Source of the DNA: Betaproteobacteria bacterium RIFCSPLOWO2_02_FULL_66_14
GTDB taxonomy: Bacteria; Pseudomonadota; Gammaproteobacteria; Burkholderiales; SG8-39
NCBI GenBank assembly: GCA_001770475.1
Contig: MERB01000002.1
Coordinates: forward strand, 37,008-88,029
DNA: 51,022 nt
Reading direction: 5' to 3'
Shown: piece after piece, positions 286 to 2,544 of the stretch
Layout: each line of letters begins with the position of its first letter
Position numbering within the stretch: the stretch's first letter is position 1
The notes under the pieces: model-generated
Databases searched by the model: none
Told to the model about the DNA's origin: nothing
Seen by the model: only the letters and a program-made list of their open reading frames with translations
Translations under genes and position numbers: made by a program

Positions 286-522
286 GTGACTTCGAAGTAC
301 GTTTCCAGCCTCAATACGGATCCAAACGGGGTGATTTCGGTCACCTTGCGTGGCATCAGCGGCGCCGTGGATGGAAAGATCGTCACGATGGCGCCGATGA
401 TCGACGCGACAAACCAGGCGACGGCTTCCAATCTCGGAGGGCCGCTGTACGGCTGGCGATGCGGCGGCACCGGGACGACCGTATCGGCGGACATGCTGCC
501 GAGTTCGTGCAGAGGCAATTGA
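286..522 (+). pseudogene. Type IV pilin C-terminal fragment; the N-terminal leader and hydrophobic alpha-helix are missing
   Basis: The 78 aa TSKYVSSLNTDPNGVISVTL...GKIVTMAP...WRCGGTGTTVSADMLPSSCRGN resemble the pilin beta-sheet and the C-terminal disulfide loop (C...C, with LPSSCR at the end). In no frame does the upstream sequence encode an FTLIELMIVVAI-type N-terminus. Confidence 0.55.
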
Positions 523-593: not shown

Positions 594-876
594 TGGCTCC
601 CCGACCAGGGCTCGAACCTGGGACCTGCGGATTACAGGTACCCCAAGGTTTCCCCTGGGCCTGGACTTTCTCTTGGCCGACCCGCGCAATCGCGGGGACG
701 GTCCGGCGTGTAAAGTCTCTGCACTTGCCCGGTGGCTTGGCCACCTGCTAGCTCAGGATTGCCCTAGACCGCAAGGTCCTTAGGTTTCCCTGACTTAGCG
801 CCGTTTTCACCACCACGTTTCCATGGCGGGCTGCCTACTTGACAGTCCGTCGCTCTACCAACTGAGCTATCGGGGA
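594..876 (-). tRNA. tRNA-Asn(GUU) interrupted by a group I intron; exon 1 is 876..842, exon 2 is 634..594, CCA is encoded
   Basis: The joined exons give the 76-nt sequence TCCCCGATAGCTCAGTTGGTAGAGCGACGGACTGT+TAATCCGCAGGTCCCAGGTTCGAGCCCTGGTCGGGGAGCCA. This folds as a full cloverleaf with anticodon loop CUGUUAA and discriminator G. It is colinear with E. coli tRNA-Asn. There is one A27:C43 mismatch. Confidence 0.85.
635..841 (-). mobile_element. Group I intron, 207 nt, similar in size and motifs to the Azoarcus tRNA-Ile intron, inserted between anticodon nt 35 and 36
   Basis: Helices drawn by hand: P1 is exon CUGU paired to intron GCAG, with a U-G wobble at the 5' splice site. P2 is CCGCCAUG-GAAA-CGUGGUGG; P3 is CGGCG/CGCCG; P4 is GCUA/UAGC; P5 is UCAGG/CCUGA; P6 is GGUGG-CCAAG-CCACC; P7 is GACUUU/AAAGUC; P8 is CCCGCG-AUUG-CGCGGG; P9 is CCCAGGG-GAAA-CCUUGGG. 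The intron ends in G. Motifs GAAACCUAAG and AGAGACU also occur in the Azoarcus ribozyme. Confidence 0.8.
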
Positions 877-1299
877 TCGGATTTCATACTGCCGTGCCCA
901 TCGAATTCCCTTCACCTGCCGGTTCGCGGGCCGCGTCAGTCGCAACTTCGCCTCCCTTACGAGAGGCAAGTTGGCGAGCGGGATTATATAGGTGCAACCG
1001 TTGTCCGGGCAAAAGATGCCGAAGGCGTCCACCTCGCCACGGTAATCCCGGCGTTTGCCGCCACGATGGTACTGGGACGAGGCGACGGGGAACACGACGG
1101 CCACGTTTCTAATTCGCCCGGTCTTGCACTGCACACGCGAAAATACGCCGCCTTCTTCGACGACAGGGTCGTAGCGCGCGTTGTCTCCGAACGGCAGCAT
1201 CACCTTGACGCCGCGCTCGAGCAACGCAGCCATGATCTGAGACTGGGAAACATCCCCGACCCATTTGCTGTTGTTGCGATTCCGGTTGGAAGTGCGCAT
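835..1299 (-). CDS. Small PD-(D/E)XK endonuclease, similar to the intron homing endonuclease I-Ssp6803I, free-standing
   Basis: The track ORF is 835..1308 and an ATG lies at 1299. The segments GDVSQSQIMAALLERGVKVMLPFGDNARYDPVVEEGGVFSRVQCKTG and DAFGIFCPDNGCTYIIP...LRLTRPANRQVKGIRWARQYEI match my recollection of this family. The last 14 codons and the TAG at 835-837 overlap tRNA exon 1 and the first intron nucleotides. Confidence 0.6.
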   Translation of the reverse strand: MRTSNRNRNNSKWVGDVSQSQIMAALLERGVKVMLPFGDNARYDPVVEEGGVFSRVQCKTGRIRNVAVVFPVASSQYHRGGKRRDYRGEVDAFGIFCPDNGCTYIIPLANLPLVREAKLRLTRPANRQVKGIRWARQYEIRSPIAQLVERRTVK

Positions 1300-1323
1300 C
1301 AGGAGCAAGGTGTGAAGACAGCT

Positions 1324-2544
1324 TCAGGACCTGATCACCTTCGCGATCGCCTCGCTGACGTAATCGACGTTGCCGCGGTTCAGTGCCGCGACGCAGATGC
1401 GGCCGCTGTCGATTGCGTAGATGGAAGACTCCTCGCGCAGCCGAGCAACCTGATCCCTGGTCAATCCGGAATACGAAAACATTCCTCTTTGGCGGAGGAT
1501 GAACGCGAAATCCGCATCCGGCGCCCGCCGCTGGATGCCCTCGAGCAGCGCCTGGCGCATGGCCTTGATGCGTTCACGCATCGCGGCGAGTTCCTGCTCC
1601 CACAGCGCGCGAAGTTCCGGCGTCGAAAGCACCGTCGCGACGATCTGCCCCCCCAGCGTCGGCGGATTCGAGTAATTGGCGCGGATCGTCCGTTTCAGCT
1701 GGCTGAGCACGCGCGCCGATTCCTCGCTGCCGGTAGTGACGACGCTCAACGCTCCGACCCGCTCTCCATACAGCGAGAACGACTTGGAATACGAACTGGA
1801 CACGAAAAGCGGCGAATACTCCGTGGAAAAGAGCCGTACCGGGACGCCGTCGGCATCGATGCCGTCGCCGAATCCCTGGTAGGCGATGTCGAGAAACGGA
1901 ATGAGCGCCCGCTCGCGCACGGCTTGCAGCACCTGCCGCCATTGATCCGCCGTGAGATCGGCGCCCGTGGGATTGTGGCAGCAGGCATGCAGCACGACGA
2001 TCGCGCCGGCGGGCATCGACTGCAGGCCCTTCAGCATGGCGCCGAATTCGACCCCCCTGGTGGCCGCATCGTAATAGGGGTAGCTCTCGACCGTGAACCC
2101 CGCGCTCTCGAAGAGCGCGCGGTGGTTTTCCCAGCTCGGATCGCTGATCCAGACCTTCGCCTCGGGCGCCATGCGCCGGAGAAAATCGGCACCGATCTTC
2201 AGACCGCCCGTTCCGCCGAGCGCCTGCACGGTCACCACCCGCCCGTCGCGGACCGCCGTCGATTCCGCGCCGAACAGCAATTGCATCACGGCGCGGTCGT
2301 ACGCCTGCAATCCGTCGATCGGCAGGTAGGCGTGCGGCGCGCCCCTGGCGAGGTGCGCCTGCTCGGCGCGGCGCACGCATTCGAGCAGCGGCACTTTGCC
2401 GTTCTCGTCGTAATAAACGCCGACGCCGAGATTGACCTTGCGCGGGTTCGCGTCGGCGTTGAACGCCTCGGTGACACCGAGAATCGGATCCTTCGGTGCC
2501 ATCGGAACGGAGGCGAGCGGGGAGGGCGGCTGCGGCTGGTTCAT
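1324..2544 (-). CDS. Aspartate/aromatic amino acid aminotransferase (class I, AspC/TyrB type)
   Basis: The N-terminus reads [41 protein letters not shown]-lysine motif [14 protein letters not shown] is present. Length is 406 aa; an alternative start lies at 2502. Confidence 0.9.

Follow-up and report, generated by a model that had tools for sequence, protein, structure and literature searches.

A free-standing gene for a putative homing endonuclease of the I-Ssp6803I family (PF11645, PD-(D/E)XK) adjoins an intron-bearing tRNA-Asn gene in the 51,022-nt stretch of DNA analysed here (the window). We propose, with a probability of roughly 0.6 for the gene assignment and the pairing jointly, that this nuclease and the ORF-less tRNA intron are partners in collaborative, or trans, homing. 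The enzyme would cut tRNA-Asn loci that lack the cassette; if it behaves like I-Ssp6803I, its target would be the palindromic DNA of the anticodon arm, which the intron interrupts. Repair of the double-strand break would then carry the nuclease gene, usually along with the closely linked intron, over to the cut allele, and the carrier's own intron-split allele would probably be no substrate.

The ORF listed for the earlier note occupies positions 835..1308 of the minus strand (157 aa, from TTG 1308 to TAG 837..835). As that note had claimed, the gene lies outside the intron and on the tRNA strand: the ORF is 5' of exon 1, and both are on the minus strand. The I- prefix of intron-encoded enzymes does not apply, since the ORF is 5' of exon 1 and the 207-nt intron holds none. 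The proposed likeness to I-Ssp6803I was confirmed by the profile and structure comparisons suggested at the time. Against PF11645 (PDDEXK_5, Pfam; cut-off 26.1 bits) the ORF scored 114.7 bits, with E=4.3e-33, over ORF residues 13-142 and 135 of the 138 profile positions; phmmer matched it to I-Ssp6803I (PDB 2OST) with E=5.7e-4; and 2OST chains took Foldseek ranks 1-4 for its AF2 model (pLDDT 82.9; E=3.7e-8, TM 0.59-0.70). The model predicts a restriction-endonuclease-like fold, as in 2OST. A scan of the ORF against NCBIfam gave no match. Relatives of the nuclease are 140 aa long and end in ...YEI*, and the start codon is likely ATG 1299 rather than TTG 1308, because this start yields a 140-aa protein like theirs. 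The canonical PF11645 coding region would accordingly extend from ATG 1299 to the Ile codon at 882..880 (880..1299, minus strand).

Catalytic-type residues were assigned by inference from family alignments and are, in the 140-aa numbering, D16 (GD motif), Q19 (the Glu equivalent), D44, Q57 and K59. The last three make up the Asp...Gln-x-Lys core, whose D, Q and K columns are invariant in 138 family members apart from one K-to-R, and which I-Ssp6803I relatives also keep. The N-terminal helix Glu is absent from the window protein, which reads GDVSQSQ with Gln at the aligned position. The PDB chain of I-Ssp6803I reads GDIAQQ, and the family helix Glu is nevertheless real because 13 natural I-Ssp6803I relatives read GDIAEQ; alignment with these sequences confirms the pairing of Gln with the catalytic Glu that had first been made by eye. 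The further suggestion that the enzyme is degenerate on this account was rejected. Gln is the commonest residue at the Glu position in the tRNA-Asn clades (10/16), Asp or Glu is present at the GD position, an acidic residue occupies the GD position and/or the Glu position in 135/138 family members, and intact nuclease copies are under strong purifying selection (median dN/dS 0.076, 212 pairs). Gln is therefore no evidence of decay, being clade-wide under purifying selection and compensated by an acid. We infer that the nuclease may be active with the GD-position carboxylate alone.

The tRNA-Asn(GUU) gene runs from 876 to 594 on the minus strand and is interrupted after U35 by a 207-nt intron. 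Exon 1, as read from the sequence, covers 842..876 (35 nt, ending at U35), the intron, of a kind that we call type A and without an ORF, 635..841, and exon 2 594..634 (41 nt), with an encoded CCA at 596..594. ARAGORN made no call on the unspliced gene in the window and recognised a canonical 76-nt tRNA-Asn(gtt) in the joined exons. Rfam RF00028 matches 852..642 (minus strand) with 41.7 bits (E=1.4e-8), below the gathering score of 50; in relatives, type B introns score 58-67 bits and type A introns 32-50 bits. Compensatory double changes occur in 28 of the 76 consensus pairs among 11 type A sequences. At the U.G 5' splice site the terminal U of exon 1 pairs with the G of GGCAGCC, and the last intron nucleotide is G. 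By these sequence features the element is a group I intron and is predicted to be self-splicing. The two divergent intron types occupy one tRNA-Asn site, and no second or intron-less tRNA-Asn was found within the 51-kb window or in 709 kb of related loci.

Comparison with related loci was partly in line with the collaborative homing proposed earlier. The intron is confined to the betaproteobacterial tRNA-Asn clades, and there it is present at the same site in 17/17 species-level loci; the arrangement in the window, where 35 bp separate the nuclease end from the intron site, is common to these 17 loci. The nuclease gene is found at three positions upstream of the tRNA (0, 11-17 and 50-56 nt), and clade 1 has two different left flanks, as would befit a mobile gene. 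The co-occurrence fits a pairing, and could result partly from linkage over 35 bp and shared ancestry. What fits less well is immunity conferred by the intron. The nuclease and intron trees are discordant: identity of the window nuclease to those of L001/L006/L007/L009 is 69-73%, yet the introns of these loci are only 46-48% identical to the window intron, and the window intron is 66-69% identical to introns whose nucleases are only 46-48% identical to the window's. Such discordance counts against the pairing because the nuclease should not home into intron-bearing alleles if these are immune. Moreover, many relatives adjoin intron-less tRNA genes (Thr, Lys, Ala, Gly and Asn, in bacteria and phages) without apparent self-damage, so the intron is not generally needed for immunity.

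The nuclease gene also comes and goes beside the intron. Among 106 intron-bearing tRNA-Asn loci it is intact in 56, truncated in 17, absent in 26 and undetermined in 7, and many of the nuclease-less loci retain 3' relics such as TATGAAATTTGA. When set against introns of intact loci, those beside an absent or truncated gene are 79-100% identical, and 27 of the 33 comparisons give 94-100%. Presence and absence of the cassette was demonstrated in relatives rather than in the window itself: L026 and L115 differ by 487 bp, with flanks 97% identical and introns 100% identical. Integration of a genomic island at the tRNA was rejected as an explanation, since the indel consists of the 0.49-kb nuclease cassette and nothing else.

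In the family at large, relatives checked for their context were not scattered over unrelated loci: in 78/80 bacterial loci a tRNA gene lies at most ~165 nt from the nuclease gene, and in 78/80 phage loci within 300 nt, although the latter figure is partly trivial inside dense tRNA arrays. Nuclease clades in the family tree follow tRNA identity. Phage and Beggiatoaceae nuclease genes adjoin intron-less tRNA-Asn, synteny beside tRNA-Thr is stable in Gaiellaceae and Thermoleophilia, and several clades have nuclease stop codons placed exactly against the tRNA 5' or 3' end. Additionally, intron-encoded PF11645 members occur in phage tRNA genes (L237, L239). The phage tRNA-Asn anticodon arms beside homologues, compared for a shared target, were too diverse to inform. 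An apparent general rule, relevant to understanding the evolution of tRNA loci, is that PF11645 genes adjoin tRNA genes in bacteria and phages; neither this rule nor the arrangement in the window was found described in the literature searched.

These patterns bear on an alternative that we regard as unlikely but take seriously, namely that nuclease and intron are independent co-residents. The nuclease would then target the junction at which its gene is inserted, or some other stretch of the tRNA gene or leader; the intron would be irrelevant to immunity, and it would hitch-hike by co-conversion or have been present by descent. The discordant trees, the gene present or absent beside 100%-identical introns, the many relatives at intron-less tRNAs and the stop codons that exactly abut tRNA ends all favour such independence. 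However, the betaproteobacterial tRNA-Asn-linked genes have the intron in 17/17 cases despite at least three insertion positions and two intron types, and the DNA that clade-2 nuclease genes occupy, upstream of the tRNA promoter, is not conserved and would be a poor homing target. Also against it, the characterised member of the family, I-Ssp6803I, reportedly makes its cut in the anticodon arm, where the intron inserts (Bonocora and Shub 2001).

The low dN/dS raises a different question, since it is low for a purely selfish gene and counts against the homing reading. It would suit a domesticated protein that the host keeps not for homing but for a role at the tRNA or intron (aiding splicing, regulating by DNA binding or guarding the tRNA locus), and so would the stable synteny beside tRNA-Thr and the loss of the helix Glu, which is kept in 53/60 phage members and replaced by Gln or Thr in most bacterial chromosomal clades. 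We nevertheless consider domestication improbable. The gene is truncated or absent beside the intact introns of 17 and 26 of the 106 loci, respectively, and is therefore dispensable for splicing; near-identical genomes differ in its presence; D, Q and K are still invariant; and the window copy is without its stop codon. The third possibility, a nuclease gene once inside the intron like I-Ssp6803I and later moved to the 5' flank, as the earlier note had also suggested, is very improbable even though the family is shared with that intron-encoded enzyme and has intron-encoded members in phage tRNA genes: the betaproteobacterial clades group in the family tree with free-standing tRNA-adjacent genes (the nearest is phage L201), their nearest outgroups being free-standing phage genes beside intron-less tRNA-Asn, and not with the intron-encoded cyanobacterial and phage clades, to which they are only ~24-30% identical, and no ORF or remnant fits in the ~80 complete introns examined (206-246 nt).

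The proposed collaborative homing of a free-standing nuclease with a tRNA intron has partial counterparts among known systems. I-Ssp6803I, from the tRNA-fMet intron of Synechocystis PCC 6803, has the Pfam family, the fold and Asp...Gln-x-Lys in common with the window nuclease, and in both systems the host is a tRNA gene interrupted in its anticodon loop by a group I intron. The window gene differs in lying in the tRNA 5' leader and not within the intron, and its product differs in having Gln for the helix Glu, with a carboxylate at the GD position only, and a shorter C-terminal region; the proteins are only ~24% identical, and activity and target are predicted for the window nuclease. In phages, collaborative or trans homing is known for F-CphI with the psbA intron of cyanophage S-PM2 and for T4 mobE with the I-TevIII-defective nrdB intron (PMC3984707, PMC2790892, PMC6083498). 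There, too, a free-standing nuclease gene adjoins a gene with an ORF-less or nuclease-defective group I intron, and the nuclease is expected to cut where the intron inserts or close by, so that both elements travel together, which in our case is a prediction. Those systems are phage-borne, reside at protein-coding genes and use Endo VII-like or HNH nucleases, whereas the window system is on a bacterial chromosome, at a tRNA gene, with a PD-(D/E)XK nuclease, a distance to the intron site of only 35 bp and discordant nuclease and intron trees. T4 SegB is a free-standing homing endonuclease of the GIY-YIG type, encoded among the clustered tRNA genes of T4, and it promotes the inheritance of that region (PMC2330249); as a free-standing gene among tRNA genes it parallels the phage PF11645 genes in tRNA arrays, but it belongs to another nuclease superfamily, has no intron and is known from phage only. 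The window intron itself resembles the IC3-type introns of bacterial tRNAs, such as that of Azoarcus pre-tRNA-Ile, in being small (~205 nt in those), in having no ORF and in interrupting a betaproteobacterial tRNA at its anticodon loop. By eye the core motifs look alike, and covariation backs the structure in the window; the host differs, being tRNA-Asn(GUU) with insertion after U35, and two divergent types occur at its site. No description of group I introns in tRNA-Asn was found in the searchable literature.

To our knowledge, I-Ssp6803I is the only characterised PF11645 member, and it represents a finished product inside a tRNA intron. In the usual account of how mobile group I introns originate, a free-standing nuclease and an ORF-less intron converge on one site and the nuclease gene then invades the intron. 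The converged-but-separate stage has been documented in two phage systems only, both at protein-coding genes (PMC3984707), and such a configuration is now seen in bacterial chromosomes at a tRNA gene. We offer tentatively, as a wider reading that may well not hold in full, that PF11645 comprises tRNA-specialised homing endonucleases in which all stages of this proposed pathway are present: free-standing beside intron-less tRNAs (in many bacteria and phages), free-standing beside an ORF-less intron (the window and ~100 related loci) and inside an intron (I-Ssp6803I, L237/L239). If so, the tRNA-Asn system would be the first case of collaborative homing on bacterial chromosomes and a "pre-invasion" stage within the same family as the "post-invasion" I-Ssp6803I. 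As part of the same tentative reading, the tRNA 5' leader would serve as the nuclease mRNA, whose 3' end RNase P would set right after the stop codon. Among the ~100 natural loci, nuclease genes in the intact, truncated and lost state are all found next to near-identical introns. Questions of cleavage specificity, of intron immunity, of nuclease-intron co-conversion and of how tRNA processing affects nuclease expression and vice versa become directly testable in this system.

The left flank of the nuclease gene is a class I/II aminotransferase gene (1324..2544, minus strand; PF00155, E=1e-81), whose stop codon precedes the nuclease ATG by 24 nt. The same flank recurs in L001, L004, L093, L095, L101, L104, L111, L133, L143 and L168, and also in Zeimonas L026. 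A sigma-70-like promoter, TTGCCC-N18-TATAAT, lies within the nuclease ORF at 983..1012 (minus strand), ~105 nt upstream of tRNA +1, and is a candidate tRNA promoter. The motif TTTTGCC..TATATAAT is present in 10/10 copies downstream of the aminotransferase gene, whereas TTCTGCC stands in its place in most nuclease copies that possess an upstream promoter of their own. The nuclease may be expressed from the tRNA precursor, or via read-through from the upstream aminotransferase gene. Apparent "-10 boxes" before nuclease-less tRNAs (L110, L117) were rejected, as they turned out to be the aminotransferase stop region.

In most relatives the nuclease stop codon forms the final three nucleotides ahead of the RNase P site: most clade-1 loci have TGA at the equivalent of 877..879, and three have TAA, abutting tRNA +1. 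In the window the ancestral TGA is replaced by CGA at 877..879 (minus strand). As the earlier note had observed, the frame then crosses all 35 nt of exon 1 and stops in the P1 loop; it yields the tail SPIAQLVERRTVK (835..876, minus strand, from exon 1 and intron nucleotides 1-7) before TAG 837..835, which is intron nucleotides 5-7. The earlier placing of the domain end ...ARQYEI stands as to the YEI terminus, and needs correction as to exact abutment on the tRNA: the conserved domain ends at the Ile codon 882..880, one codon short of the tRNA, and the CGA codon intervenes. The identical tail is found in P0002-P0004 and P0103. CGA in place of the stop is restricted to the window and L101 and to L001/L003/L143, and the stop loss arose independently in the window lineage and in the latter group. 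Because most relatives stop at TGA or TAA abutting tRNA +1, the read-through into exon 1 is the product of a point change and not a designed feature. An RNase P-processed transcript of the window copy would be without a stop codon.

Two further changes at conserved columns, L45P, which adjoins the catalytic D44, and G66V, are specific to the window and found in neither case in its near-twin L101; these radical substitutions have arisen since the split from this 99.6%-identical relative. The window sequence deviates at 8 conserved columns, the highest number, compared with 0-7 in the other 30 sequences. Between the window and L101, nonsynonymous to synonymous changes number 3:1 in the nuclease gene and 2:5 in the aminotransferase gene, too few for significance. 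Taken together, the stop loss, L45P and G66V suggest that this nuclease copy is beginning to decay; with its stop lost and its frame entering exon 1 and the P1 loop, it would stand at the decay stage of the homing cycle. For annotation, proteins with the C-terminus "SPIAQLVERR..." are read-through artefacts.

The tRNA-Asn(GUU) gene of the window is split on the minus strand into exon 1 (TCCCCGATAGCTCAGTTGGTAGAGCGACGGACTGT, 35 nt, 876..842), an intron of 207 nt (841..635) and exon 2 (TAATCCGCAGG...GGGGAGCCA, 634..594). ARAGORN made no call on the unspliced sequence, and the joined exons gave a canonical 76-nt tRNA-Asn(GUU). The Rfam group I model matched 852..642 (41.7 bits, E=1.4e-8), which is below its gathering score of 50. 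In P1, the terminal U of exon 1 pairs with the G of GGCAGCC, and the last base of the intron is G. Moreover, compensatory two-sided changes preserve 28 of 76 consensus pairs across 11 related introns of the same type (type A). The tRNA begins three nucleotides past the Ile codon of the nuclease frame, and a UAG lies at intron nucleotides 5-7 in the P1 loop, so the earlier note described the locus correctly.

The nuclease gene follows an aminotransferase gene (PF00155, 1324..2544) on the same minus strand, its ATG at 1299 lying 24 nt past the aminotransferase end. Its 140-codon frame runs from this ATG to ...ARQYEI at 880; the mechanical ORF listing gives 157 aa, from TTG 1308 to the TAG at 837..835. 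The protein matched PF11645 (PDDEXK_5) in Pfam (E=4.3e-33) and the I-Ssp6803I structure 2OST in a sequence search of the PDB (E=5.7e-4). In a Foldseek search, an AlphaFold model built with 43 homologues as input (pLDDT 82.9) matched the four 2OST chains best (E=3.7e-8, TM 0.59-0.70), followed by SPARDA DREN domains and archaeal Hjc resolvases. These matches confirm the proposed I-Ssp6803I-like family; the protein is a PF11645 member, yet not an intron-encoded enzyme. Just 3' of the tRNA, a 78-aa ORF (286..522, plus strand) matches type IV pilin (PF00114, E=6e-6) over the C-terminal part alone, at positions 48-108 of 108; the ORF represents a truncated pilin gene or cassette with no N-terminal half.

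Association with tRNA genes extends across the family. Scanning a single genome per species yielded 307 relatives, of which the best 80 were inspected. In 78 of these 80, a tRNA gene is no further than about 165 nt from the nuclease gene; the exceptions are L016, with its nearest tRNA 754 nt off, and L069. By our estimate, such proximity is expected by chance in roughly 1-2% of cases at typical tRNA densities. For relatives on viral contigs, a tRNA is no more than 300 nt away in 78 of 80 cases, which is partly trivial in dense phage tRNA arrays, and proximity is also seen at loci with a single tRNA; the nearest viral relatives have an intron-less tRNA-Asn at 3-18 nt. Homologues are therefore clearly not scattered over loci unrelated to tRNAs. 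The partner tRNA varies by nuclease clade: intron-bearing tRNA-Asn in Betaproteobacteria (nuclease gene 0-56 nt upstream, same strand), tRNA-Thr(UGU) in Gaiellaceae/Thermoleophilia (about 50-105 nt from the nuclease gene start), tRNA-Lys(UUU) in Chloroflexota (convergent, the tRNA 3' end abutting the nuclease stop), convergent tRNA-Ala(GGC) in Planctomycetota, adjacent tRNA-Thr(GGU) in Vulcanimicrobiota and adjacent intron-less tRNA-Asn in Beggiatoaceae. In the Gaiellaceae/Thermoleophilia loci (L013, L020-L025, L028-L031, L036-L038, L041 and others), the tRNA-Thr(UGU) is intron-less and is called on different strands in different genomes at a nearly constant distance; a conserved convergent gene (reverse-strand peptide ...DTKTIDNALQRVKRKI...) terminates just 3'. 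Several MAGs whose contigs look betaproteobacterial are labelled Streptomycetaceae or Enterobacteriaceae, probably through errors in binning.

A group I intron occupies the same position in all 17 genome loci with the nuclease gene before a betaproteobacterial tRNA-Asn. These introns (206-246 nt) fall into two types with only about 50% identity between them, and type B introns score 58-67 bits, above the Rfam threshold. In the converse direction, we searched metagenomes with exon 1 of tRNA-Asn joined to the guide sequence of the intron and pooled the counts with the genome loci. At intron-bearing tRNA-Asn loci, the nuclease was intact in 56, 5'-deleted or internally deleted in 17, absent in 26 and undetermined in 7. 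Many of the loci without a gene retain its last 10-30 nt (e.g. ...TATGAAATTTGA|tRNA), and introns at gene-less or truncated loci are 94-100% identical to those at intact loci in 27 of 33 comparisons (range 79-100%). Zeimonas arvi L026 (3898-4384) and its metagenomic relative L115 (1484-1488) differ solely by a 487-bp nuclease-bearing cassette, with flanks 97% and introns 100% identical. A (GGCTGC)n repeat forms the start of the cassette, which is bordered on each side by a 5-bp GCTGC direct repeat; this may represent microhomology through which the cassette was gained or lost. Such frequent deletion beside retained introns implies that the protein is dispensable for splicing. Where the gene is intact, purifying selection on it is strong (median dN/dS 0.076), and this constraint together with frequent deletion is what a homing cycle predicts.

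The nuclease and intron trees are discordant. The window nuclease shares 69-73% identity with its counterparts in L001, L006, L007 and L009; the introns there belong to the other type (46-48% identical to the window intron). The window intron resembles (66-69%) introns whose paired nucleases reach only 46-48% identity, and the mismatch recurs in L008. Such easy re-pairing with resident introns would be unexpected if intron-bearing alleles were uncuttable and counts against a simple intron-immunity story, as do the relatives beside intron-less tRNAs, which evidently escape self-cleavage by some other route. That nuclease and intron are merely linked, without functional partnership, carries substantial weight. 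However, the nuclease abuts the tRNA-Asn or lies upstream of it by 11-17 nt or by 50-56 nt, in the latter case on the far side of the tRNA promoter, and it either has its own TTGACC-N17-TAATAT promoter and leader or directly follows the aminotransferase gene; the intron is present in every one of these positions and contexts. This constancy favours a functional link, and for this reason we rank collaborative or trans homing first, in which a free-standing nuclease and an ORF-less intron would move together. Such a system would resemble the pairs known for collaborative or trans homing in cyanophage S-PM2 and phage T4 (PMC3984707, PMC2790892) and, in its tRNA setting, T4 SegB (PMC2330249). In the searched literature, neither group I introns in tRNA-Asn nor the tRNA adjacency of free-standing PF11645 genes turned out to be described, which does not prove novelty.

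In own-promoter loci, the order is promoter, ~55-nt leader, nuclease ORF, TGA, intron-bearing tRNA and terminator, so the nuclease mRNA would double as the tRNA 5' leader. Aminotransferase-context copies, including the window, leave no space for an upstream promoter. All ten (the window, L001, L004, L095, L101, L104, L111, L133, L143 and L168) carry TTTTGCC-N18-TATATAAT within the nuclease ORF (window 1012..983, minus strand); in each of them, synonymous codons (TTT-TGC ... TAT-ATA-ATT) give rise to TTGCCC-N18-TATAAT, and the corresponding site in own-promoter copies is mostly TTCTGCC. This suggests a candidate tRNA promoter built by synonymous codon choice; possibly, the ten copies share the motif through common ancestry.

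The frame does enter exon 1, as the earlier note held, through loss of a stop codon rather than as a designed arrangement. Most of the 111 homologues from the protein search are exactly 140 aa and end in ...YEI. At the DNA level, the codon abutting tRNA +1 in related loci is TGA in most clade-1 copies (the betaproteobacterial nuclease clade that includes the window) and TAA in L095, L133 and L168, which points to an ancestral stop codon whose final base would be tRNA position -1. CGA at this site is confined to the window and its near-twin L101 and, as an independent occurrence, to L001/L003/L143; the window's T-to-C change lengthens the frame by 14 codons. The resulting 'SPIAQLVERRTV' C-terminal tail, present in the window protein, P0002-P0004 and P0103, is translated exon 1. 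The proposed conflict with RNase P, which would leave a processed transcript stop-less, is reasonable, but it describes a defect and not a design. Gene-caller versions of 154-213 aa with 'SPIAQLVERRTV...' tails (P0001-P0004, P0103, L019) are annotation artefacts of such copies, their tails derived from tRNA exon 1 and intron.

The suspicion that the enzyme is degenerate stands on other grounds than those first given. The window Gln was aligned correctly to the helix Glu, which is part of GDIAEQ in 13 natural relatives of I-Ssp6803I (69-93% identical). The crystallised chain reads GDIAQQ and is probably an E-to-Q mutant; the Glu of the natural relatives thus matters. In the tRNA-Asn clades, Gln is the commonest residue here (10/16). 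Across 138 family members, the core-motif Asp, Gln and Lys are invariant apart from a single K-to-R, and 135 have a carboxylate at the GD position (66), the Glu position (31) or both (38), suggesting that the catalytic carboxylate may have shifted by one helical turn, as is common in the PD-(D/E)XK superfamily (PMC3384342). Therefore, the window Gln is no sign of decay. The copy nevertheless looks damaged: besides the lost stop, it has the most conserved-column deviations among 31 clade-1 sequences. It is 99.63% identical to L101 over 7.6 kb, and three of the four differences within the nuclease gene, too few for statistics, are non-synonymous, including L45P, adjoining the catalytic Asp, and G66V.

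In several phage tRNA genes (L214-L216, L221, L222, L224-L228, L230, L234, L240, L241, L246), an insertion of 458-488 nt splits the anticodon loop and consists nearly wholly of a PF11645 ORF (e.g. L216:2929-3486). Only ~60-90 nt is non-coding, not enough to hold a group I core, and an Rfam scan of L214-L216 and L226 gave no group I match at E<=0.01. Across the junctions, the two ends of an insertion could base-pair with each other (L216: CTTG|TTAG with CTAAC|AAAT), and these loci may be either spliced or disrupted tRNA genes. According to a 2014 review, every phage intron then known lay in a protein-coding gene. The phage tRNA arrays L239 and L237 contain bona fide group I introns (L239:302-509, a 66-bit Rfam match), and a 597-nt group-I-like intron in a phage tRNA-Lys(UUU) overlaps a PF11645 ORF (L239:2890-3570; L237).
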